Virus record (IMG/VR): IMGVR_UViG_2703718820_000012
Span: 1-10,489 of that record
Direction: 5' to 3' (one strand)
Source: a virus
Lineage: Duplodnaviria > Heunggongvirae > Uroviricota > Caudoviricetes
DNA length: 10,489 nt
A program made the translations under genes and the position numbers. Of this stretch, positions 1 to 10,489 are shown in pieces. The notes beneath the pieces are model-generated. The model was not told the DNA's origin, searched no databases, and was given only the letters and a program-made list of their open reading frames with translations. Within the stretch, counting starts at the first letter, position 1. Each line of letters starts with the position of its first letter.

Positions 1-1
1 G

Positions 2-688
2 GACCAGGAAAAATGGAGCGGCGACGGTGCCGGACTCAAGGCCATCACCGGCGGCGATGCGGTGTCCGTGGACCCGAAATACCGGGATGCGTACTCCACG
101 CATATCCCGGCGGTAATTCTGGCCGTGAACAATAACCCGATGCGCTTCACCGACCGCAGCGGCGGCGTGTCACGCCGGCGGGTGATTATTCACTTCCCGG
201 AACAGATAGCCCCGCAGGAGCGCGACCCGCAGCTTAAGGACAAAATCACCCGCGAGCTGGCGGTCATCGTGCGTCACCTGATGCAGAAGTTCAGCGACCC
301 GATGCTCGCCCGGTCACTGCTTCAGTCCCAGCAGAACTCAGACGAGGCGCTGAACATCAAACGGGATGCCGACCCGACGTTTGATTTTATCGGCTATCTG
401 GAAACCCTGCCGCAGACCAGCGGCATGTATATGGGGAACGCCAGTATCATCCCGCGCAATTACCGTAAATACCTCTATCACGCCTATCTGGCCTACATGG
501 AGGCAAACGGCTACCGGAATGTACTCAGTCTGAAAATGTTCGGGCTGGGGCTGCCGGTGATGCTGAAGGAATACGGACTGAATTACGAGAAGCGCCATAC
601 CAAACAGGGGATACAGACCAACCTGACGCTGAAAGAGGAAAGCTACGGCGACTGGCTGCCAAAATGTGACGACCCTGCAACAGCCTGA
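2..688 (+). CDS. P4 alpha-type primase/helicase, C-terminal portion (5' end upstream of window)
   Basis: Reading frame is open from the first base of the window (…DQEKWSGDGAGLKAITGGDAVSVDPKYRD…); the GTG at 62 chosen by the ORF track is internal, not a start. ILAVNNNP / RRRVIIHF segments resemble the end of an SF3 helicase core as in P4 alpha and D5-like primases. Stop TGA at 686-688 is followed by a strong terminator and TGTTCAC iterons, the binding motif of P4 alpha. Confidence 0.75.
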   Translation, partial: DQEKWSGDGAGLKAITGGDAVSVDPKYRDAYSTHIPAVILAVNNNPMRFTDRSGGVSRRRVIIHFPEQIAPQERDPQLKDKITRELAVIVRHLMQKFSDPMLARSLLQSQQNSDEALNIKRDADPTFDFIGYLETLPQTSGMYMGNASIIPRNYRKYLYHAYLAYMEANGYRNVLSLKMFGLGLPVMLKEYGLNYEKRHTKQGIQTNLTLKEESYGDWLPKCDDPATA

Positions 689-695
689 CCCACCT

Positions 696-720
696 GACCG
701 GCATCTGCCGGTCTTTTTTT
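696..720 (+). terminator. Rho-independent terminator of the primase gene
   Basis: GACCGGC (696-702) / GCCGGTC (707-713) 7-bp GC-rich stem, ATCT loop, then a run of seven T (714-720), starting 8 nt after the stop codon. Confidence 0.7.
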
Positions 721-738
721 ATCCCGACATCCCCCGAA

Positions 739-766
739 GGTGAACAATCCACTGTTCACTCTTCAC
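739..766. promoter_or_regulatory. Isolated iteron pair (GGTGAACA-N6-TGTTCAC inverted repeat) of crr/ori type
   Basis: GGTGAACA at 739-746 and TGTTCAC at 753-759 form an inverted repeat; a degenerate copy CTTCAC follows at 761-766. Same octamer family as the clustered repeats at 3037-3337. Confidence 0.5.
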
Positions 767-1149
767 TGTATATCCCCCGTACCAATATGAATTTAGTGAC
801 AAGAAAACATAAGTTGAACAGGAAAACCCAAAGAACTTTTTATCCCCCTCCAGACATTACCTGTCGCATCCATATTGAGCAAAAAATCTCATAGATAGAG
901 TGGTATTATTAACGTTTATCGCTTATCTAAATAGTAAAAACAAAATGCGATTCTAATTTTATTCACAGGGTAAATAACTGAAATTATCTAAATAACTATA
1001 AACCCCTCATATATATAAATAAATTATACCACATAACCAAAATACGATATTCTGCTGAGATCATTAAATTTAAGCTTATTTCAATGGCTATTACTCTAAA
1101 GATTTGTTAATAACCAGTCGTCATGAAAATATACTTACAGTTATGTTTA

Positions 1150-1158
1150 TGCTATAAT
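1150..1158 (+). promoter_or_regulatory. Candidate extended -10 promoter element (TGCTATAAT) for the HAD gene
   Basis: TGnTATAAT match 28 nt upstream of the ATG at 1186; no convincing -35 at proper spacing, which is tolerated by extended -10 promoters. Confidence 0.35.
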
Positions 1159-1185
1159 CAGTGACAAATATTTTGGGGAGGAATT

Positions 1186-1872
1186 ATGAAAATTTGTTTT
1201 TTCGATATGGAGGGGACTTTACTTGAAAAGAACTCATATTTAGATAATGGAAAAGTTGCACCGAGCGCGTGGACAGTACTTGCCAAAGAAATCAGCGAAG
1301 CTTGTTTTATTGAAGAGGAAAAAACAAAAGATTTATGGCTAGCTAATAAATATATCAGCTATACACAATGGATGAAAGAAACTGTTGAAATACAAATCAA
1401 ACATGGAATGAACAAAAATCACCTACAAACGGTATTATCTCAAGCGAAGATACAAAAAGGTGCTGTGGAACTTATTCATTATTTGAAAAGTCAAGGATAC
1501 TTAACAGTATTGATATCTGGTGGGTTTAAAGAATTAGCAGACCTAACTCAAAAGAGCCTAAAAATAGATCATGCATATAGTGCTTGTGAATATTTTTTTA
1601 GGAAAGATGGTAGCATTGAGCACTTCAATCTATTACCAACAGATGAGGAAGGGAAACTGGTCTTCATGAAACACCTTGCCTCTGAATATAACGTAGAACT
1701 TGAAAATTGTATTTTTGTTGGCGATGGGAAGAATGATGTTTTTATCGCCAAAAATGTAGGTACTTCTATAGCCTTCAATGCTCAGAGAGAATTAAGAGAA
1801 GTATCTACATTTATTGTAGACCAAGAAACACCTGATTTATCAGCGATTATTGACCTTATTAGAACTATTTAA
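1186..1872 (+). CDS. HAD-superfamily hydrolase, phosphoserine-phosphatase (SerB)-like
   Basis: Strong RBS (GGGGAGGA, 4-nt spacer) before ATG 1186. HAD motifs: I FFDMEGTL (Asp nucleophile, Glu at +2 instead of the usual Asp), II VLISGGF, III Lys in FMKHL, IV GDGKNDVFIAKNVGTSIAF, the last very like SerB GDGANDLPM…AG.GIAF. Visibly AT-rich compared with the flanks. Confidence 0.8.
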   Translation: MKICFFDMEGTLLEKNSYLDNGKVAPSAWTVLAKEISEACFIEEEKTKDLWLANKYISYTQWMKETVEIQIKHGMNKNHLQTVLSQAKIQKGAVELIHYLKSQGYLTVLISGGFKELADLTQKSLKIDHAYSACEYFFRKDGSIEHFNLLPTDEEGKLVFMKHLASEYNVELENCIFVGDGKNDVFIAKNVGTSIAFNAQRELREVSTFIVDQETPDLSAIIDLIRTI

Positions 1873-2673
1873 TCGATTTTGGAAGTCAAGTTTATCTTTA
1901 ACTATTTCCAGTTGTTCCTCTAACTGTTTTATCTTTGATTCAGACTGTAATTTGTACTGATTAAATTCATTTAAGTCAAATTTCTCTGAGAAATAGTAAT
2001 CTCTCCCAAAAGAAATTAGCGAGAGGAATAACCCAACAACAGCGATCATCGTTCCTATTTTAGTTATCGATATAATTGATAATTTTTCAGTTAGCTCTTT
2101 GCTTATCTGCTCTTTTAGAACTACTGGTTCTAAAAAAGTTTTAGGAAAATTACTTATATCTGAAACACGGTAAGATCTATATTCATTATATTGTTCTATA
2201 ACATCATAAGAACTAGGCACAGCAGAAGCCGGTTGATAATTTGGATTTTTTTCTATTTCATGGAATACAACTCTAAAGAAAGATTTATCTTGCTCACTAT
2301 CAGTAACTGGAAGATATTCCTCTACAGCTGAGAAATTAATTAACAGTGTTGATATCGGACCGTTATATCCAGAATCGATAATACCAGTATTGAGTGCAAG
2401 AAACCCCTTTTGCGATAATCTATTTTTTAAAAATACATATGCAATAAAACCCTCTGGCACATGAAGTATTTCTTCTGATATTACAAAAGCCGAATCTTGC
2501 GGTTTAAGTAAAGTTCTTCCGAGAGATCTTACATGATTTTTTTCATCTTTAAAAAGAATTTCCCTAATAGAAAGATCCACACTTGATTTATTAGAATAAT
2601 CTTTTGTGATTTTTTTGTTATATCTATCACAAACAAACCCATATTCAATTGCTTTTTGAGCACTAATCTGCAT
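1840..2673 (-). CDS. dUTPase/dCTP-deaminase-superfamily domain protein with predicted transmembrane helix and C-terminal coiled coil
   Basis: 277-aa ORF with AGGTGA RBS upstream of ATG (2671-2673). Central segment RLSQKGFLALNTGIIDSGYNGPISTLLINFS matches Dut motif III (GLIDSDYQGQLMISVWN) and the Dcd core (RIDPGWSG…LEFYN). Hydrophobic stretch LSIISITKIGTMIAVVGLFLSLISFG suggests one TM helix; the tail (KLQSESKIKQLEEQLEIVKDKLDFQNRL) is heptad-like. 3' end overlaps the HAD gene by 33 bp. Confidence 0.75.
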   Translation of the reverse strand: MQISAQKAIEYGFVCDRYNKKITKDYSNKSSVDLSIREILFKDEKNHVRSLGRTLLKPQDSAFVISEEILHVPEGFIAYVFLKNRLSQKGFLALNTGIIDSGYNGPISTLLINFSAVEEYLPVTDSEQDKSFFRVVFHEIEKNPNYQPASAVPSSYDVIEQYNEYRSYRVSDISNFPKTFLEPVVLKEQISKELTEKLSIISITKIGTMIAVVGLFLSLISFGRDYYFSEKFDLNEFNQYKLQSESKIKQLEEQLEIVKDKLDFQNRLNSSNKVNNR

Positions 2674-2893
2674 ACTTCACCTAACTTAGCTTATTCTATC
2701 GAACAATAATTGAATCACATAGTTATAATGTAACTAGACGAATATATCCAATGTTTTTGAATATATTATTGACGAAGCAAGTCAACTGATCAATACTGTG
2801 TATAAAAAAACAACATCTTCACCACATATAAAAAAAACATAAAATCATGGTACTACCTCAAAGTCCTGACTCCTGCTGAATTGCTTAATCATA

Positions 2894-2995
2894 AGAAGCG
2901 CCATACAAAACAGGGAATAAAGAGCAACCTGACGCAAAAAGAGGAAAGCTACGGCCACTGGCTGCCAAAATGTTACGCTCCTGCAACAACCCTAC
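2894..2995 (+). pseudogene. Relic of primase 3' end (direct-repeat copy 2); not an independent gene
   Basis: Encodes KKRHTKQGIKSNLTQKEESYGHWLPKCYAPATT, which parallels EKRHTKQGIQTNLTLKEESYGDWLPKCDDPATA at the end of the 2-688 gene. The original stop is lost, so the track ORF 2881-3093 reads through into terminator and iteron DNA. Confidence 0.65.
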
Positions 2996-2998
2996 CTA

Positions 2999-3022
2999 GA
3001 CCGTCCTCTGCCGGTCTTTTTT
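2999..3022 (+). terminator. Degenerate copy of the primase terminator
   Basis: GACCG (2999-3003) / CGGTC (3012-3016) stem, 8-nt loop, then a T run (3017-3022); positionally equivalent to 696-720. Confidence 0.4.
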
Positions 3023-3036
3023 ATCCCGGCCCCCCA

Positions 3037-3157
3037 GAAGATGAACAATCCACTGTTCACCTTTCACCGTATATTCACCTGTTATCATACTGAAATTAAA
3101 AGAGAAAAATGAAAGGTGAACAGTGTGAACAATCAAATCAAAAAAACTCTTTTCTCC
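3037..3157. repeat. crr-like replication element, 120-bp direct repeat unit 1 (TGTTCACC-type iterons)
   Basis: Contains TGTTCACC (3054-3061), TTTCACC, ATTCACC, and inverted GGTGAACA (3115-3122) / GTGTGAACA (3123-3131). Aligns nearly base-for-base with unit 2. Confidence 0.7.
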
Positions 3158-3215
3158 TTGTGTGATTTCAGTCCGGGGAATTAATCACCGGTATGAGTCA
3201 CACCGGCAGAATGCC

Positions 3216-3337
3216 GGAGGTGAAGAATCAAATGTTCACCCTTCACCCATTATTCACCACCTATCATACTGAAAGTAAAAGAGAAAACAGAAAGGTGAAC
3301 AGTGTGAACAGTTCTTTCGAAAAAAACTTTTTTCCTG
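3216..3337. repeat. crr-like replication element, 120-bp direct repeat unit 2
   Basis: TGTTCACC (3233-3240), CTTCACCC, ATTCACC, GGTGAACA (3294-3301), GTGTGAACA (3302-3310); offset 179 bp from unit 1. The ~58-bp spacer carries a hairpin CCGGCA-GAA-TGCCGG (3203-3217). Confidence 0.7.
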
Positions 3338-3620
3338 TACGATACAGCATCAATCAAAGTAAAAATGAGCTTTCATTCCACATTAACTTACAGCCATTGG
3401 TATACAATTAGGTATACGCACAAAAGCTGAATTAAATAAAATAATTAAAAATCAAAGAAATAAAATACTTATTCAAACTCCGCCAGCCCAATCATGATTG
3501 GACGGTGTAAGGACAACACCAACAAAAACAGGAAGTTAGCAGTCTCAGCAGGACACCGACCAGACGGTGAGGAGACAAAAAAGGATACGCAAAGGAGCCG
3601 CGGCTCTCGAGTGACACAAA

Positions 3621-3647
3621 AGCCCGCTTATGCGGGCTTTTTGTTTT
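3621..3647. terminator. Intrinsic terminator hairpin (A-tract / stem-loop / T-tract), orphan
   Basis: AGCCCGC (3621-3627) / GCGGGCT (3632-3638) stem with TTAT loop, preceded by AAAA and followed by TTTTTGTTTTT. No annotated CDS ends here. Confidence 0.55.
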
Positions 3648-3718
3648 TCCCTTAAGTTCCTAGCCGCTTATCTATAACTATGGAAAAATGTTAACCCTGA
3701 CTGTATGTTAACAAAGGG

Positions 3719-4933
3719 ATGTATATGTCGGTTTTTCATAACTGGCTGCTTGATATCGCAAGCGGGAATTACTTTATCTACATCAAACGCCTTTCTGCAA
3801 ACGACACAGGCGCAACAGGTGGCCATCAGGTCGGACTTTATATCCCCTCAAATATCGTTGAAAAGCTTTTTCCATCAATCAATCATACTCGCGAACTGAA
3901 CCCTTCAGTCTTCCTTACTGCGCATGTATCATCCCATGATTGCCCTGATACCCAAGCACGCGCAATTTATTACAACAACCGTTATTTTGGTAAGACCCGA
4001 AACGAAAAAAGAATTACGCGCTGGGGGAGAGGAAGTCCATTACAGAACCCTGAAAATACAGGAGCCCTCACAATTCTTGCTTTCAGGTTAAACGAACAGA
4101 ACACTGACTGTTCCGAGGTAGATATATGGGTCTGCGTCAATCCCGATGAAGAGGATATCATCGAGTCTGCTATTGGCGAAATCATACCTGGAACCCTAAT
4201 TTCCGGCCCTGCCGGACAAATTTTGGGCGGATTGTCTCTTCAGCAAACTCCAGTAAATCATAAATATGTTATTCCTGAAGACTGGAAGAAGCGTTTTCCT
4301 TCTGGAAACGAAATTATTCAATATGCTGCTGGCCATTATGCTAAAAACTCCAAGGATCCAGATGAGCAACTGATTGACCGTCGGCGTGTCGAGTATGATA
4401 TTTTTCTACTCGTCGAGGAATTACATGTTCTTGATATTATTAAGAAAGGATTCGATTCTGTAGATGAGTTTATTGCATTAGCCAACTCTGTCAGTAATCG
4501 ACGTAAATCAAGGGCAGGCAAATCACTTGAACTTCACCTAGAGAAGCTTTTTATCGAGCACGGACTACGGCATTTCTCCACTCAGGCAGTTACTGAAGGT
4601 AATAAAAAACCAGATTTCCTGTTTCCTTCAGCAGAGGCATATCATAACGTTGAATTTCCTGTAGAAAACTTACGTATGCTGGCAGTAAAGACCACCTGCA
4701 AAGATCGCTGGCGTCAGATACTGAATGAAGCAGATAAAATCCATCAGGTACATTTATTTACACTGCAAGAAGGTGTTTCTTCAGCACAATACCGAGAAAT
4801 GAAAGATGCGGGTGTCAGACTCGTTGTACCATCAACTTTACATAAAAAATACCCAGAAGCAGTTAGAGAAGAATTAATAACGCTCGGAGCATTCATTACT
4901 GAGCTGATAGAGCTTTACGCTGAACTATCATAG
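3719..4933 (+). CDS. ecoRIIR: Type IIE restriction endonuclease, EcoRII family (CCWGG)
   Basis: 404-aa ORF whose N-terminus (M-Y-MSVFHNWLLDIASGNYFIYIKRLSANDTGATGGHQVGLYIP…) I recognise as EcoRII; the length matches my recollection of R.EcoRII. It is convergent with a Dcm-like methyltransferase, as in the EcoRII system. Start ambiguity: ATG 3719 has a poorly spaced SD, ATG 3725 has AAGGGA at 5 nt. Confidence 0.85.
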   Translation: MYMSVFHNWLLDIASGNYFIYIKRLSANDTGATGGHQVGLYIPSNIVEKLFPSINHTRELNPSVFLTAHVSSHDCPDTQARAIYYNNRYFGKTRNEKRITRWGRGSPLQNPENTGALTILAFRLNEQNTDCSEVDIWVCVNPDEEDIIESAIGEIIPGTLISGPAGQILGGLSLQQTPVNHKYVIPEDWKKRFPSGNEIIQYAAGHYAKNSKDPDEQLIDRRRVEYDIFLLVEELHVLDIIKKGFDSVDEFIALANSVSNRRKSRAGKSLELHLEKLFIEHGLRHFSTQAVTEGNKKPDFLFPSAEAYHNVEFPVENLRMLAVKTTCKDRWRQILNEADKIHQVHLFTLQEGVSSAQYREMKDAGVRLVVPSTLHKKYPEAVREELITLGAFITELIELYAELS

Positions 4934-4938
4934 GCTGA

Positions 4939-4961
4939 CTCCCGGCTTAAAAGGCCGGGAG
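4939..4961. terminator. Inter-convergent hairpin, possible bidirectional terminator between R and M genes
   Basis: CTCCCGGC (4939-4946) / GCCGGGAG (4954-4961) perfect 8-bp stem with 7-nt loop, inside the 34-bp gap between the two stop codons. No clear T-tract. Confidence 0.4.
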
Positions 4962-4967
4962 ATGTTC

Positions 4968-6401
4968 TCAAGGCTGCCCAGTCTTACCAGCATCAGCAGA
5001 AACAGCTTTGAGGATATAGGGTTCCAGAAGTCTGGCAACAGCTTCAAATACTGGCACCACAACTGAGTTACCGAACTGCCGATATGACTGAGTATCTGAA
5101 ACCGGAATACGGAATGGTTTCCCTCCAGGTTTTTCAAATCCCATAAGGCGTGCACACTCTCGGGGAGTCAGCCTGCGTGGTCGACGAGCCTGATTACTCT
5201 CATTCATAAAGTCAGCCTCTCCCGTTGCCATATCCCAACCACGATCAATAAGAATTTCTGATCCGTCTTTGTGATATCTGGCAGAAAGTGTGCGTGCAAT
5301 GCTTTCCTTATTCTCAGGATTGACCAACCCAAAGCCAAAACCATTCCCCTTGGCTGCATGCTTTTTGGCGTAGTTATAAAGGTACTCCCATAGTTTTGGC
5401 GTAAGTATATATTTACTGTCGACTACAGGCTCCAGCAATTCACCAAATGATGGGCGGTGTTCCGGATAAAAACGACTGATATCACGCAAGGTAAACCCCT
5501 TGTGAATATTCAGATCTCGTCTAAATCCGACCAGAACAATGCGTTCACGATGCTGAGGCAAAAAATGCTTCCCATCGATAATCTTTGGATCGTTTTTTCC
5601 CATTTCTGCAGCATCGGCAACTTCGTAGCCCAGCTCGTCAAGGGTCTCCATAATCACTTTGAAAGTTTTACCCTTATCATGGCTCTTCAGATTTTTGACA
5701 TTTTCCAGCACAAAAATTGCCGGTTTTTTTGCTCGTATAATACGTGCCACGTCAAAAAAAAGTGTTCCTTGTGCTTCACATTCAAAACCATGCGCACGAC
5801 CAAGTGAGTTTTTCTTACTAACACCAGCAAGGCTAAATGGCTGGCACGGGAACCCCGCAAGAAGCACATCATGATCCGGCACATGCTCATCAATATATGC
5901 ATAAGCATCCGTTTCCAATACATCGGTTTTATCACTCAGCGTGACTTCCCGAATATCGAGATTGAATTTATGCACCTGTTCATCGTTAAACCAGTTGGCT
6001 TTGTATGTACGCACAGCATCTTTATTCCATTCACTGGTAAAAACACACTGGCCTCCAATGGCCTCAAAACCTTTCCGTATCCCTCCAATTCCAGCAAATA
6101 AGTCAATGAAGCGGAAAGCATATTCCGGATGGTTTGCAGGTGGTTCTGGTAGCATCTTACGCAGAAGAGACTCTTCTACTGAAGTCAACGATTTTGGTAA
6201 ACACTTGCCATTAATCCAGCGGTTAATGGTTTCACGGCTCCACTCATTTTTTCCGACTTTTCTCAGTAATTCAGCCACATACTTCTGATCATAGATTTCC
6301 AGCACTTTCTCGATAAGCTTTTTATCATTTTCCTGTCGCAGCTTTTCTTCCGCCTCGGCTTCCTTCAGCAGATGCTGTGCCAACACTTCAAATTCAGACA
6401 T
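4968..6401 (-). CDS. ecoRIIM: DNA (cytosine-5)-methyltransferase, M.EcoRII/Dcm family
   Basis: C5-MTase motifs: [32 protein letters not shown]-terminal [10 protein letters not shown]; strongly collinear with E. coli Dcm as I recall it. Start placed at the Met 15 codon (ATG at 6399-6401, GGAGG RBS with 4-nt spacer), giving 477 aa; the track's 491-aa start at 6443 has no RBS. Confidence 0.85.
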
Positions 6402-6762
6402 AATTCCTCCAAGGGGTCTAATGGGTGAAACTTTATCACTCATTCAACCCAGAAGGAAATGTTTTATCTGGATATTTAAACAGTGACTACAACGTAATCT
6501 AGCACTGGTGATGCTTTGTTAGGCATAGAGAATCATTCTATATACGACTAATGACAGAAAAACAGCAGACAAGTAGTTTGTTCATAAATTAACGCATACT
6601 ATGTGTCTACGGTTTTCGAGACCGGTCCAATCATCAAACGAAACATAAAATTAGCTCACATTATGAGGAAAAGTATCTTTTTTGTACTATGTAAATTCAA
6701 AGGCTTAGCCTCATTTCTCCGATGGTTTTCTCAACACTACTGGTTGTGAGCCCTTGCAATGA

Positions 6763-7581
<819 letters not shown>

Positions 7582-7603
7582 GTCTTTAAGTGATAAGCAT
7601 AAA

Positions 7604-7642
7604 CCGCAGCACGATCTTCTTCCATACGACGTGCTACGGTTT
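7604..7642. terminator. Possible bidirectional terminator hairpin between convergent GIY-YIG and invertase genes
   Basis: CCGCAGCACG (7604-7613) / CGTGCTACGG (7630-7639), one mismatch, 16-nt loop, AAA upstream and TTT downstream. The long loop makes this weak. Confidence 0.3.
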
Positions 7643-8196
7643 CATTTATCTCCGACCGGAAACTTCTTATACAGTGTCGATATACCAACATCATAGATGA
7701 TCGCCACCTTCTGGCGAGGAACGCCTGATGCAATTAATCGCCCGGCCTGCGCCCATTGTTCTGGTGTAAGTTTGGGACGACGTCCACCAATTCGTCCCTG
7801 TGCGCGAGCAGCTTCCAGTCCAGCTTTTGTTCGTTCAACAATCAGTTCTCGTTCCATTTCAGCCAGGGCACCCATCACATGAAAGAAAAAACGCCCCATC
7901 GGTGTGCTGGTATCAATAGCATCCGTCAGACTGCGAAAATTAACGCCACGTTCGCGCAACTCCTCAACCAGAATGACCAGATGCCGCATACTACGCCCCA
8001 GCCGATCCAGCTTCCAGACAACCAGAGTGTCACCTGCCGATAATGTCCTGAGCAGTTTTTTCAGTCCCGGCCTTTCGGACTTTGTACCGCTTATCTTGTC
8101 TTCAAAAATCAGCTCGCATCCTGCACAGTTCAGCGCATTACGTTGTAGATCTGTGTTCTGGTCATTTGTTGATACGCGTACATAGCCAATAAGCAT
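7642..8196 (-). CDS. Serine-recombinase DNA invertase, Pin/Gin/Cin/Hin family
   Basis: From the internal Met: MLIGYVRVSTNDQNTDLQRNAL…GDTLVVWKLDRLGRSM…MGRFFFHVMGALAEMERELIVERT…GRIGGRRPKLT…, the catalytic Ser region and C-terminal HTH typical of Gin/Pin. Start set at ATG 8194-8196 (185 aa); the 12-codon upstream extension in the track is not supported. Confidence 0.85.
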   Translation of the reverse strand: MLIGYVRVSTNDQNTDLQRNALNCAGCELIFEDKISGTKSERPGLKKLLRTLSAGDTLVVWKLDRLGRSMRHLVILVEELRERGVNFRSLTDAIDTSTPMGRFFFHVMGALAEMERELIVERTKAGLEAARAQGRIGGRRPKLTPEQWAQAGRLIASGVPRQKVAIIYDVGISTLYKKFPVGDK

Positions 8197-8250
8197 GGTA
8201 GATCCCCCTGACAAAAGCAGGAATGATGCCATCTGCTCGTTATTTCTGCA

Positions 8251-8276
8251 TTTTCATAAACGTTGGTTTGGGAGAA
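8251..8276. repeat. Left inversion crossover site (hix/gix/pix-like 26-bp site, TT core at 8263-8264)
   Basis: TTTTCATAAACG-TT-GGTTTGGGAGAA; inner half-site identical to the right site; AAACN-NN-GGTTT architecture. Confidence 0.7.
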
Positions 8277-8630
8277 GCGGCAAAACGGAATGTAGGTAAC
8301 GGGCAAAACCAAATTCCGGATATGGCGGCGTTTGCCAGTTCACTTTCATCAACGGGTTTTCAAAAACTCCCTTCAGGTCTGATTATTCAGTGGGGTATTG
8401 TCAGTGGAGCATCAAACTATACGGTGACTTACCCGGTAACATTCCCAAATCGTTCACTTGCGCTGTTGGCTGTGCCACATACAACGTCGGTGGCTGGTAT
8501 ATCTGCAATGGGCATAGCGAACTGTTCTGATATCAGCAAATCACAGTTCTATATAATTGTTGGCGGTATATCTCAGGGAGAAATTGTCAAATATGAAAGG
8601 TCCTGTTTTTGGGTAGCAATCGGTGTATAG
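8265..8630 (+). CDS. Silent alternative tail-fibre C-terminal (receptor-binding) cassette
   Basis: Begins [20 protein letters not shown]…, paralleling [20 protein letters not shown] in the expressed fibre. It would be fused in frame to the constant part after inversion; the ATG at 8223 is fortuitous. Confidence 0.6.
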   Translation, partial: GLGEAAKRNVGNGQNQIPDMAAFASSLSSTGFQKLPSGLIIQWGIVSGASNYTVTYPVTFPNRSLALLAVPHTTSVAGISAMGIANCSDISKSQFYIIVGGISQGEIVKYERSCFWVAIGV

Positions 8631-8638
8631 GTATATCT

Positions 8639-9034
8639 ATGATTTATTTCTCAAAATCGACTAATGGTTTTTTCTTTGATGGTATAAACAGCGACATGCC
8701 TGCTGACATTGTTGAGATAAGTACAGACTTATACAATGAATTAATTGCCGGACAGCAGGAAGGGGGGAAATTAATCACGTCAGATGAAAATGGTTTACCG
8801 GTACTGAAATCTCCGGCGATTGATTATGTCGCACGTGCTGAAAATCAGCGAATGCAGTTACTTGCTCATGCCGATAATGTCACAGCTGACTGGCGGGTGG
8901 AATTAATGCTTGGTGATATCAGCAGTACAGATAAAGAAAAACTATCTGCCTGGATGGACTACAAAAAAGAAGTAAAAGCCGTCGACACTTCGACGGCTCC
9001 TGAGATTAGCTGGCCTGAGTTACCGGAGGTGTAG
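8639..9034 (+). CDS. Tail fibre assembly protein (alternative copy, Tfa/U' type)
   Basis: MIYFSKSTNGFFFDG…[17 protein letters not shown]; the C-terminal motif is typical of Tfa/gpU chaperones. ATG at 8639 preferred over the TTG at 8609. Confidence 0.7.
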   Translation: MIYFSKSTNGFFFDGINSDMPADIVEISTDLYNELIAGQQEGGKLITSDENGLPVLKSPAIDYVARAENQRMQLLAHADNVTADWRVELMLGDISSTDKEKLSAWMDYKKEVKAVDTSTAPEISWPELPEV

Positions 9035-9425
9035 GCCATTCAATATCTGGCGCACCGGAAGTATCGACCAGTTCCAGTGCGTCCAGGTAATCCAGCCACA
9101 AATTATATTGTGCCAGTTCCTCACCTTTCAGCCGGCCAATAGCCGCTTTACCAGGCCATTGTTTACTGTTCATATAATCGTTGGCCTGTTCAATAAGTAT
9201 ATTTTTCATTCCCTCCGCTTCAGCTATTTCCTGTTCATGTGTCTTCGCTGGATATTCAGTAAGTACAGGGTAGTTATCCGGGCTATTGATAATAATTTTC
9301 CCCGTACTCTGACCATTCATAAGTTCATAATAAAGAGCATCTTCAATATCGAAAGCATCATCGGGAATATCGCTGTTGTTTTCAGAGAAAAATCCCTGAA
9401 CAGATGGGGACCATTTCATTTTCAT
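9006..9425 (-). CDS. Tail fibre assembly protein (Tfa/U type, currently in expressed orientation)
   Basis: [16 protein letters not shown]…[16 protein letters not shown]. Start ATG overlaps the stop of the upstream fibre gene (ATGA coupling at 9422-9425); 3' end overlaps the other tfa by 29 bp. Confidence 0.75.
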
Positions 9426-10489
9426 AATTTCCCAATTCCTAAAATATGGACATCATCAGCCTTACGGGCATTCCAGGTGACAATTACATCGGTAGAGTGA
9501 CGATTAACTGAGATTGCGTATGCTTCGTTAGTCGAGCCAGAAACTTTTGTGGCAAACACAGCAAACAGGACACCAAATGACTGGGGCCATTTATAGCCTG
9601 ACAGCTGATAATTACCATTATCCAGTGTTACAGCTTTGACTGCTGCACTTGATGGAATCGTCAGCCACTGGAGTATCAACCCTCCTGGCAAAAGTTGTTT
9701 TCCATAAAAATCCCTCACACCACTAAATGAAACCATATCCGGTATCTGATTTTCCCCTGTTCCCACGTCCCGTTTTGCCGCTTCTCCCAAACCAAGGTTT
9801 TCGAGAGCCGTTTGCACAGTGCCATCCGATTTGATATCGCCAAACGGATTCTTGCGGCTTAACAGCAGCGCACGAAGTGCGGTAAGCATCTGGTCATGCC
9901 GCCCTTTCTCCAGGCTGGCACCGGAGGCCTCCACCACGCTACAAAGTTCTTCCTGCAACATGTCAAAGTAGTCATCATCCAGATCGGTGGCAGGTGTGCC
10001 GGTCTGGGGGTTACCACGGGTATCCGGTTTGTCGGTGTTACTGCCCTGACCGTTCTCTCTGTGACGATGCCCGTTATAGGCAAGCCGCATCGCTGACATG
10101 GTGGTGCCGCCGGAGTCGCACAGGTCTTTCACCTGTCCGGTCACTTCCAGGTCCATTTCAAAACGTGCTTCAGGTGCATTGCGAAACGTGATCGTTTTAC
10201 CTGCACCGTCCACCACGATCCCCTCCCGGGTCAGCGTCACGGACTGCCCCTGATCGTCATAGACAGCCACCTCGCCCGTCTGCAGCCCTTTCAGGCGGTA
10301 GCGACGGTCCGACACCGTAACAACCACCGCATGAGAACGGTCGCCATCCGGAAACAACACCACCGCTTCCGCACCGCTGTTTGCCCTTGCGGTAAAACCG
10401 TAGGGTTCAAGATGTTCAACCCCGGCTTTGGGTTCACCGGCAATCAGGGACACATCCACGGTCTGTAGTGGCACACTAAATTTGGCCAC
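9422..10489 (-). CDS. Phage tail fibre protein, 3' portion (constant region plus currently fused variable tip); 5' end beyond window
   Basis: Open frame from the window edge to the stop at 9422-9424. The constant/variable junction at [13 protein letters not shown] coincides with the right crossover site. The upstream part (…FPDG…DSGGTT…HRH…) loosely resembles baseplate-spike (gpV-like) proteins, but this is tentative. Confidence 0.65.
9782..9807. repeat. Right inversion crossover site (hix/gix-like, AA core at 9794-9795)
   Basis: TTCTCCCAAACC-AA-GGTTTTCGAGAG; about 21 of 26 positions match hixL (TTCTTGAAAACCAAGGTTTTTGATAA) as I recall it. Confidence 0.7.

Follow-up and report, generated by a model that had tools for sequence, protein, structure and literature searches.

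A direct repeat in a P4-like satellite prophage at ssrA is the probable scar of a fusion between two satellites

Features of the satellite right end

The DNA analysed here (the window: 10,489 nucleotides, positions 1 to 10,489 of IMG/VR record IMGVR_UViG_2703718820_000012) is the right end of a P4-like satellite prophage integrated at ssrA. The features relevant to this analysis are listed below by window coordinates and strand.

2..688, +, alpha primase-helicase gene, 3' 228 codons, P4-type, functional copy; stop codon TGA at 686-688
577..850, +, repeat copy 1, made up of alpha tail, terminator and crr repeat 1; P4-type as far as 775, and from 776 either selC-type or diverged
696..720, +, intact alpha terminator with a 7-bp stem and a T run after it; annotated t-alpha in P4
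736..850, +, crr repeat 1 remnant in copy 1, redundant
776..2882 (approximate), no strand, imported block with homology to the cargo block at the end of selC-type P4-like satellites
1186..1872, +, HAD-IB hydrolase gene, phosphoserine-phosphatase-like (Pfam, NCBIfam)
1840..2673, -, gene for a dUTPase/dCTP-deaminase-fold protein (DCD-like; NCBIfam, with Pfam DCD and dUTPase below the gathering cutoff)
2796..2880, +, selC-type attP left arm and half att core, GACTCCTG(C)TGA at 2868-2880
2883..2994, +, first part of repeat copy 2: P4-type alpha relic comprising the final ~35-38 codons, stop codon lost
2998..3022, +, weakened copy of the alpha terminator (predicted by hairpin folding)
3037..3332, +, crr, functional-looking
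3472..3491, +, satellite attR with the ssrA 3'-end-like core TTCAAACTCCGCCAGCCCA

The alpha part matches Pfam Pox_D5 (5e-17) and DUF5906 and is 95-97% identical in nucleotide sequence to alpha of phage P4. The complete gene (777 aa) is found in the BEN2908 locus, which is 99.7% identical; gene order there is ssrA, int, psu, delta, a gene in the sid position and, further on, alpha. These core genes lie outside the window. Between them, the BEN2908 locus and the attR account for the integrase, psu-delta-sid, alpA, the remaining core genes and the bounding att sites of a P4-like satellite. From 3512 onwards the neighbouring DNA is ~100% identical to that of L004, a satellite at the same ssrA site with the same neighbours. 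Neither Rfam nor ARAGORN finds an RNA gene within the window; a phage match at 3488-3642 labelled as a tmRNA pseudogene is merely the ssrA-like attR plus neighbouring DNA.

The crr site next to attR consists of two ~115-nt direct repeats (3039-3153 and 3218-3332; 80% identical, 179-nt spacing) with five type-I iterons each. Its layout is that of P4 crr, and the crr repeat is 89-95% identical to P4-type crr repeat 1. Iteron-like sites (TGTTCACC) occur 21 times in the window against 8.1 expected, a count reached in none of 200 shuffles. The crr repeat 1 remnant of copy 1 has an 8-bp deletion which takes out one iteron; three iteron-like sites are left (739-746, 753-760 and 813-820).

The imported block and its cassette

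The imported block has a GC content of ~30%, compared with 54-63% in alpha. It contains the distal part of crr repeat 1, the HAD gene, the DCD-like gene, the attP arm and the initial 9-12 nt of a selC att core. The block originates from selC-type satellites: it is 86% identical to the E. coli satellite L002 over 1127-2771 and 73% over 500-957, and its coding part is 87% identical to L002, L006 and L008. The two genes are convergent and overlap by 33 nt. The DCD-like protein matches PDB dUTPases (E 2.5e-6) and has a hydrophobic C-terminal segment, ISITKIGTMIAVVGLFLSLISFG, as read from the translation; 114 homologues were found, the relatives being gathered from a protein database and from contig look-ups.

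The cassette matches no described anti-phage defence family in PADLOC 2.0: the DCD-like protein has no match there, and the HAD protein gives only a sub-threshold one (PDC-S34, E 2.8e-4), with no stretch passing. The cassette has no match in PLSDB plasmids, and searching GTDB genome contigs with the DCD-like protein gave none.

The two copies of the repeat

An earlier sequence-only reading had reported a direct repeat around the cassette, and this repeat is real. Positions 588-773 and 2894-3074 are collinear and identical at 158 of 186 positions (85%; five gap positions; E 1e-56, BLASTN); a repeat search and a MAFFT alignment concur. The duplicated segment is longer than was reported, reaching from ~577 to 850 and from 2883 to 3155 with weaker homology over the full extent. 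With L004 as an 'empty' yardstick, window positions 1-821 and 2883-3700 align to L004 12001-12823 and 12577-13405, respectively.

Copy 1 differs from L004 at 3 of 112 positions in the alpha tail, 1 of 46 in the terminator region and 49 of 129 in crr repeat 1; its final ~75 nt are strongly diverged. At the diagnostic sites in 577-775, copy 1 is P4-type throughout (27/27), and copy 2 is P4-type at 23 and selC-type at one of the 27. At those in 776-860, copy 1 is P4-type at one, selC-type at eight and neither at eight; copy 2 is P4-type at 16 and selC-type at one.

Copy 2 had been described as a decayed gene relic, which holds for its structure. The gene is truncated, CTA stands in place of the stop codon, and the terminator hairpin is weaker (-7.9 kcal/mol with six pairs and an 8-nt loop, 2998-3017, vs -14.1 kcal/mol with seven pairs, 696-713). 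In BEN2908, PGAP annotates copy 2 as a partial 'poxvirus D5-like' pseudogene. The changed codons of the relic are 2 synonymous and 10 non-synonymous. The excess of substitutions, however, is not significant: copy 2 differs from L004 at 26 of 158 positions in the alpha tail and terminator and at 14 of 124 in the adjoining crr repeat (Fisher p = 0.23), so that measurable in-situ decay is not supported.

The alpha tail of copy 2 is 82-87% identical to P4-type sequences and just 64-69% to selC-type sequences. Among 5,426 E. coli genomes, the best alpha 3' end match to the relic does not exceed 86% identity. Exact 31-mer searches of viral and metagenome collections for an intact alpha with the private variants of copy 2 matched only the same arrangement.

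The two junctions

The left junction lies within the conserved iterons of crr repeat 1, in homologous sequence, where the type of copy 1 changes at ~775. At the right junction, which is non-homologous, the half core GACTCCTG(C)TGA adjoins the alpha relic, ~115-127 nt ahead of the alpha stop. The GACTCCTG motif occurs once in the window; its identity with the 3' end of tRNA-Sec can be seen in L002. The attP arm and core align collinearly with those of the Citrobacter selC-type satellite (local score 32; shuffle mean 17.1, sd 2.8; 0/500 shuffles as high).

Distribution of the arrangement

Alpha, terminator and crr are contiguous in P4, in L004 and in L005, in all 68 informative IMG/VR loci and in the majority of the ~4,500 E. 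coli genomes that match. 'Empty' primase-crr junctions, which the sequence-only reading suggested looking for among relatives, are therefore the rule. Only empty junctions, and no alternative cargo, are found in 80 IMG/VR loci with near-identical alpha tails. The split arrangement is rare (3/5,426 E. coli genomes). The same arrangement is present in three complete genomes and one metagenome contig; hence, it is not an artefact.

Relatives which carry the cargo beside their own primase also exist, as had been anticipated: in L002, L006, L008 and L016 the HAD and DCD-like genes come right after the satellite's own alpha, terminator and crr repeat 1. Where the satellite is of selC type (E. coli, Citrobacter, Enterobacter), the cassette ends in an SSR, then an arm, then the core GACTCCTGTGATCTTCCGCCAAAA, identical to the 3' end of tRNA-Sec. 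The duplication of alpha, terminator and crr is absent from these satellites.

Alpha relics beside the same cassette recur in other genera. The leuX-type satellites of Klebsiella have, in order, alpha, terminator, a deleted crr repeat 1, the cassette, GACTCCTGT, an alpha relic of ~320 bp, terminator and intact crr. An ssrA-type satellite of Pantoea has an alpha relic of at least 257 bp and no half core. Each relic is of the local alpha type. By an identity matrix, the cassettes fall into three groups about equally distant from one another (86-87%): that of the window, that of Klebsiella, and that of selC-type satellites in E. coli and Citrobacter. The Enterobacter selC-type cassette falls outside.

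Origin of the duplication

The repeat is probably the recombination scar of two fused P4-like satellites with different integration specificities. A selC-integrating partner, in which the HAD and DCD-like cassette follows a single crr repeat as the last cargo before attP, would have contributed ~776-2882. All remaining sequence would have come from a P4-type resident of ssrA. The left join would then be a product of homologous recombination within the conserved crr repeat 1 iterons, and the right join would connect the donor att core to the resident alpha. Two such joins would leave the block flanked left and right by the alpha tail, terminator and crr repeat 1 of the resident. In the favoured order of events, a cointegrate or tandem of both satellites may have collapsed to unit length, and the alpha backbone may afterwards have undergone more homologous exchange with common E. 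coli satellites. Sequence alone does not give this order.

Several observations count against a fusion. Entry of a whole donor predicts that copy 1 was at first donor-type, and copy 1 is now P4-type; later homologous replacement, or a donor which already had a P4-type alpha, must therefore be assumed. The attP arm is only weakly similar to that of L002 (9/500 shuffles as high) and to those of Enterobacter and Klebsiella, and the Pantoea relic lacks the half core. In addition, the window junction fits a clean integrase crossover only with small indels.

It is possible, though somewhat less than an even chance, that the donor integrase made the right junction at a secondary site in alpha. The junction falls inside an att core in the window and also in Klebsiella, where GACTCCTGT precedes the relic. 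The likeness between the selC core and the alpha breakpoints is weak (9/20 and 10/20 matches), and neither breakpoint is the best site; they rank 13th of 681 positions here and about 11th of 2,332 in Klebsiella for core score (top 0.5-2%).

The fusion has to be weighed against four other histories. The sequence-only reading had proposed homologous exchange with a related element bearing the cargo beside its own primase 3' end, taken here as a reciprocal double crossover with a related satellite. Recombination between satellites, and not transposition, stands from that proposal; simple homologous exchange does not. The same cargo does occupy the same place in related satellites, and the left junction does lie within homologous crr iterons. 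However, a double crossover would replace sequence and not duplicate it, and at the right junction an att-core remnant meets alpha midway along its tail, where the partners have no homology. Furthermore, 577-775 is P4-type in both copies, so that the relic resembles the resident and not the donor. This route is improbable. There is equally little to recommend a Campbell-type event, in which a small circle of alpha tail, terminator, crr repeat 1 and cassette entered the resident alpha-crr region by a single crossover. It would explain why the homologous segment is directly repeated around the insert and why copy 1 is a hybrid which switches at ~775; a deletion from att core to alpha in a selC-type satellite would give exactly such a circle. 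A crossover at ~775, though, predicts a donor-type copy 2 leftward of that point, and the 23 P4-type sites and single selC-type site found there, like the identities of its alpha tail, place copy 2 nearer the P4 type. Over its whole length copy 2 is P4-type (39 of 44 diagnostic sites), and the reciprocal hybrid is not seen.

A single ancient fusion which spread among att types by homologous recombination, with relic lengths set by later erosion, is unlikely. Once formed, the alpha relic and crr could serve as a right-hand homology arm, and the near-equal distances among the three cassette groups (window, Klebsiella, and selC-type E. coli with Citrobacter) suit such a history. It also agrees with the contrast between alpha, where most 50-nt windows are 97-100% identical to L004, and the right end (776-3500), which differs by 7-15% from anything else in E. 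coli. Against it, the relics start at different points (about -115/-127 in the window, -320 in Klebsiella and at least 257 before the stop in Pantoea), and every one is of its local alpha type; as the same half core is abutted in the window and in Klebsiella, erosion would have to halt at the core twice. Transposition with target-site duplication, or an in-situ tandem duplication into which unrelated DNA was later inserted, would account for a low-GC insert between direct repeats and is extremely improbable. At its ends the insert has homology to satellite crr and attP, not to the end of a mobile element. There is no transposase domain, no terminal inverted repeat and no short identical target duplication, and, as the sequence-only reading had argued, the repeats, of ~190-270 bp at 85% identity, are unlike a target-site duplication.

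Comparison with known systems

In phage P4 (NC_001609 / X51522), the alpha 3' end and t-alpha are likewise accompanied by a crr of two ~120-bp repeats with five type-I iterons each, and the flanks of the window are 89-97% identical to P4. The parts are contiguous and single-copy in P4; in the window they are interrupted by a 2.1-kb block, and the stretch from alpha tail to crr repeat 1, terminator included, is doubled. The selC-type satellites (E. coli E1, L002; Citrobacter, L006; Enterobacter, L016) share the two genes (77-88% nucleotide identity), the upstream leader after crr repeat 1 and the downstream arm. They differ in having one crr repeat, a hypervariable (GGTCAGCA)n array, a full selC att core and no alpha relic. 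A single crr repeat is reportedly enough for replication, with which the one-repeat layout of the selC-type satellites is consistent.

Tyrosine integrases, for which lambda is the paradigm, carry out secondary-site integration and aberrant excision. The right junction resembles the products of such events in that it lies inside an att core joined to unrelated DNA. It differs in that the target is the replication gene of another satellite and the core likeness is weak; the part of the integrase is inferred. Campbell-type integration shares the direct-orientation duplication around an insert and differs by its reciprocal hybrid pattern, which is absent here.

P4-like satellites are major carriers of anti-phage cargo. 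The position of the cassette, between alpha and attR, is that of a minor P4 hotspot described in the available portion of a recent study (Nucleic Acids Res 2026, PMC13586616), where 7% of P4 defence systems are placed at the primase-att position. Small intergenic pseudogene remnants, some of them core-gene-like, are taken there as traces of recombination. The same portion leaves the route of cargo exchange unresolved, since transposons are nearly absent and homologous recombination requires flanking homology; it gives no account of an alpha tail-terminator-crr duplication, of att-core junction remnants or of the HAD and DCD-like pair.

The locus is a worked example for this hotspot, in which a cargo block has moved together with a piece of crr and an attP arm with half core, and it is a useful yet fairly ordinary case of satellite cargo swapping. 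The scar, a doubled alpha tail, terminator and crr repeat, is diagnostic, and comparable alpha-tail relics stand beside the same cassette in Klebsiella, with a half core, and in Pantoea, with none. It points to involvement of an integrase or att core, and it could be used to find and date grafts in satellite collections. Whether P4-family integrases drive cargo grafting between satellites of different att specificity in general is doubtful, if conceivable. The att core of a selC-type satellite would recombine with secondary sites at the 3' end of the resident alpha, and the double element would collapse by homologous recombination. The terminal cargo of the donor would stay in the primase-att hotspot, flanked by a short alpha-terminator-crr duplication. 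If true, grafting of this kind would provide both a general, recognisable signature and a mechanism for filling the minor P4 hotspot.

The repeats had also been thought capable of mediating loss of the cassette. Such loss is improbable because the longest exact identity between the copies is only 19 bp, and the crr-att end of this lineage (>93.5% identity) was found without the cassette in no genome. Copy 1 completes and terminates alpha, and copy 2 supplies an intact two-repeat crr beside attR. With the copies diverged to this extent and essential functions divided between them, the locus illustrates how a duplication is stabilised.

Structure of the satellite right end

A P4-like satellite prophage occupies positions 1-3491 of the window with its right end. 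An imported block (~776-2882) lies between two direct repeats, copy 1 and copy 2, each with the tail of the alpha primase gene, the terminator t-alpha and repeat 1 of the replication site crr; these flanks are 89-97% identical to alpha, t-alpha and crr of phage P4. The block has ~30% GC, compared with 54-63% in alpha, and holds a two-gene cassette. The features are:

1186-1872, plus strand: gene for a HAD-IB phosphatase-like protein
1840-2673, minus strand: gene for a 277-aa dUTPase/dCTP-deaminase-fold protein with a hydrophobic C-terminal segment
~3472-3491: satellite attR, with a core resembling the ssrA 3' end

E. coli BEN2908 carries the same 3.6 kb at 99.7% identity inside a complete satellite (ssrA, int, psu, delta ... 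alpha); PGAP annotates copy 2 in this strain as a partial D5-like pseudogene. By arithmetic, the BEN2908 satellite measures ~12.3 kb from ssrA to attR, compared with 11.6 kb for P4; its main hotspot contains only one small gene. Rousset et al. (PMC9122126) describe the main P4 hotspot as lying next to cos, which is elsewhere than the present locus.

The two copies of the repeat

The sequence-only reading described the repeat as ~190 bp long and, by eye, very roughly 85% identical. The identity is borne out by BLASTN, which matches 588-773 with 2894-3074 at 158/186 positions (85%; 5 gap positions, E = 1e-56); a repeat search and MAFFT give the same pairing within the window. The copies are collinear, but ~190 bp is too short. 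Window 1-821 and 2883-3700 align to 12001-12823 and 12577-13405 in the uninterrupted alpha-crr region of L004, a P4-type satellite of strain AR_0013. Since both flanks align to this one region, the homologous stretches are ~577-850 and ~2883-3155. Copy 1 is strongly diverged over its final ~75 nt.

Copy 1 retains the parts required on the left, the alpha tail and terminator. It differs from L004 at 3/112 sites in the alpha tail, 1/46 in the terminator region and 49/129 in the crr repeat, where three iteron-like sites are left and one iteron is gone through an 8-bp deletion. Copy 2 is a truncated alpha fragment without a stop codon, followed by a weaker hairpin and a complete crr, in which each of the two repeats holds five iterons. 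Loss of the stop codon and weakening of the terminator had both been claimed for copy 2, correctly: the TGA of copy 1 (686-688) is CTA in copy 2, and the hairpin drops from -14.1 kcal/mol (696-713) to -7.9 kcal/mol (2998-3017). Twelve codons differ between the copies, two synonymously and ten not. Copy 2 had also been called a decayed gene relic. This holds for its structure, but its dead part shows no significant excess of divergence over the live crr (26/158 vs 14/124, p = 0.23).

Empty and occupied sites

A search for 'empty' primase-crr junctions in relatives found them: alpha, terminator and crr are contiguous in the P4-type satellites P4, L004 and L005, and in all 68 of the IMG/VR loci that reach past alpha (80 fetched). 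In the best non-carrier E. coli matches (H6-H40), both flanks lie within ~1.35-1.4 kb, so there is no insert in those genomes. The full arrangement is present in only 3/5,426 complete E. coli genomes, and in none of these complete genomes together with the EcoRII neighbour of the window, which makes its source a different strain. Window 629-2951 also has a 99.5% match in one food-metagenome contig.

Origin of the imported block

A selC-type satellite contributed the block, from its terminal part. Satellites of this type (E. coli E1 L002 and L008, Citrobacter L006, Enterobacter L016/L017) run from alpha and its terminator through a single intact crr repeat to the cassette, which is followed by a (GGTCAGCA)n array, a ~90-nt arm and GACTCCTGTGATCTTCCGCCAAAA. 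As GACTCCTGTGATCTTCCGCCAAAA is the 3' end of tRNA-Sec, it is the att core. The cassette in this lineage is terminal cargo between crr and attP, and the selC-type satellites examined (three species) contain no alpha relic. A single crr repeat is reportedly enough for replication.

Ancestry at the left junction was read from diagnostic sites, at which P4, L004 and L005 share one state and L002, L006 and L016 another. In copy 1, all 27 such sites over 577-775 are P4-type; over 776-860, one site is P4-type, eight are selC-type and eight are neither. In copy 2, the P4-type sites number 23/27 and 16/17 over the same two intervals. These counts indicate that the ancestry of copy 1 switches inside crr repeat 1, just past the conserved iteron pair GGTGAACAATCCACTGTTCAC. 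Past GGTGAACAATCCACTGTTCAC the window is collinear with the selC-type leader (73% identity to L002 over 500-957, 86% over 1127-2771). The left junction is homologous. The right end (776-3500) is 7-15% away from anything else in E. coli; alpha has near-identical relatives. One reading is that a common alpha backbone was joined to a right end that is older and rarely sampled, with the switch at ~775 as the limit of homology usable for such an exchange.

At the right junction, local alignment in AT-rich DNA shows window 2796-2880 to be collinear with the attP arm and core start of selC-type satellites. The score against Citrobacter is 32 (shuffle mean 17.1, sd 2.8; 0/500 shuffles as good); against L002, 9/500 shuffles are as good. 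The alignment terminates in GACTCCTG(C)TGA at 2868-2880, and GACTCCTG occurs once in the window. The alpha relic begins 3-15 nt after GACTCCTG(C)TGA, ~115-127 nt before the equivalent of the alpha stop. Alpha at the breakpoints of the window and Klebsiella bears a weak likeness to the att core (9/20 and 10/20 matches, ranking 13th/681 and about 11th/2,332). The partners share no homology at the right junction.

The octanucleotide array lies ~100 nt upstream of the dUTPase-fold gene in related satellites (L002 14853-15004; equivalent place in L006, L008, L014, L016 and L017). Copy number is variable (19, 9, at least 5, 6; 1 vs 10 in two samples encoding an identical protein), and short-read contigs end at the array. 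The array may act as a contingency or phase-variable locus. The degenerate version in the window (2776-2792) has decayed to 'gcaagtcaactgatca'.

Parallel cases in other satellites

Cassette-bearing Klebsiella satellites use P4's own leuX-type site (attR gagtccggccttcgcacca vs P4 core GAGTCCGGCCTTCGGCACCA). The cassette is preceded there by alpha, its terminator and a crr repeat 1 with crippling deletions of 32 and 9 bp; after it come the arm and GACTCCTGT, an alpha relic of ~320 bp from which 11 bp are deleted, a terminator and an intact crr. The two Klebsiella copies are mutually closest (95% over the last 112 nt vs <=82% to other types). In the Pantoea ssrA-type satellite, alpha and its terminator precede the cassette, and a relic of alpha (at least 257 bp, 74% identity), a terminator, crr and attR follow it; there is no half core. 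Every non-selC satellite with the cassette has an alpha relic, in a small sample of three lineages.

Cassette identities give a three-way split between the window, Klebsiella and selC-type E. coli-Citrobacter (86-88%). The selC-type Enterobacter cassette falls outside this split (77-78%), which favours the selC arrangement as ancestral. The relics of the window and Klebsiella differ in length yet abut the same half core; this favours separate events for the two structures. About ten loci make up this small sample of cassette-bearing satellites.

In the Pantoea satellite (L015, reverse complement 7060-8330), the relic's terminator and the crr-like iterons are ~700 nt apart; a further hairpin terminator lies in between, and a small ORF on the minus strand may too. 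The crr of this satellite is highly divergent and lacks a perfect GGTGAACA iteron.

Proposed mechanism of acquisition and possible loss

The block is joined homologously at the left and at an att-core remnant at the right, so the resident's alpha tail-terminator-crr repeat is now present twice. The sequence-only reading took homologous exchange with a related element as the probable source of the cassette. This fits the left junction, but the right junction is non-homologous and exchange does not explain the duplication; together these rule out a plain double crossover. Plain Campbell insertion is ruled out as the reciprocal hybrid is missing. Transposition, which had already been discounted, is ruled out by the anatomy. 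The two satellites probably formed a double element instead, either as a cointegrate or by insertion of one in the alpha 3' end of the other; this element would then have collapsed via homologous recombination to a packageable unit. We infer this order of events and any integrase role; action of the integrase at the att core to form the double element is conceivable but on balance doubtful. Short duplications persist because long ones would rapidly recombine the cargo out.

Loss of the cassette through the repeats, also suggested, is possible in principle, but none was seen. The copies match perfectly over at most 19 bp, below the ~23-27 bp usually given as the minimum that RecA-dependent exchange needs to be efficient in E. 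coli. The crr-att end of this lineage occurs in no genome without the cassette (closest non-carrier match 93.5%), and no alpha 3' end resembling copy 2 at >86% was found. Cassette deletion through the repeats is probably rare.

PMC13586616 reports small pseudogene remnants of core genes, ascribes them to recombination and states that the mechanism of exchange is unclear. The present locus is a new, well-resolved example of this known kind of event; it adds an att-core remnant, a duplication of alpha-terminator-crr that recurs, and two copies that share the functions out between them.

The cassette genes

The HAD-IB and dUTPase-fold genes form a conserved convergent pair with a 33-nt overlap, and the dUTPase-fold gene is accompanied by the HAD gene in every close relative examined (Enterobacterales loci). 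The dUTPase-fold protein has many homologues in Enterobacterales and Vibrionaceae (including Vibrio and Photobacterium). The cassette lies directly 3' of a P4-type alpha in E. coli, Citrobacter, Klebsiella, Pantoea and Enterobacter; the exception is a Leclercia remnant. PADLOC gives no family match for either protein. From domains and position, a role in defence or the nucleotide pool can be guessed, making the pair a candidate anti-phage or nucleotide-pool module. In K. pneumoniae CP171521 (7818-8786), an IS with a DDE_Tnp_1 transposase is inserted between alpha and the HAD gene, so this interval tolerates further insertions.

The attR and neighbouring prophage remnant

Compared with the empty satellites L004 and L005, the attR core (3472-3491) has a 3-nt deletion (gccagcccaatcatg vs gccagcccaccaatcatg); it also has several mismatches to the ssrA 3' end. 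These differences could affect excision. The window from 3512 on matches, at ~100% identity, the DNA past the 'empty' satellite that occupies this site in strain AR_0013. The remainder is a neighbouring prophage remnant with an EcoRII-type restriction-modification system, a PD-T4-3 GIY-YIG gene, a Pin/Gin-type invertase and tail-fibre genes:

3719-4933: EcoRII-type endonuclease
4968-6443, minus strand: Dcm-type methylase
6808-7581: PD-T4-3 GIY-YIG gene (PADLOC E 1e-139)
7642-8232, minus strand: Pin/Gin-type serine invertase, adjoining a tail-fibre region (both within 7642-10489)

The first three form a defence cluster (3719-7581) just beyond the satellite attR, which is likewise found past the empty satellite in AR_0013. 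A 68-nt inverted repeat (8258-8325 / 9733-9800, 84% complementary) flanks alternative tail-fibre C-termini and assembly genes; the segment between its arms looks like an invertible host-range segment.
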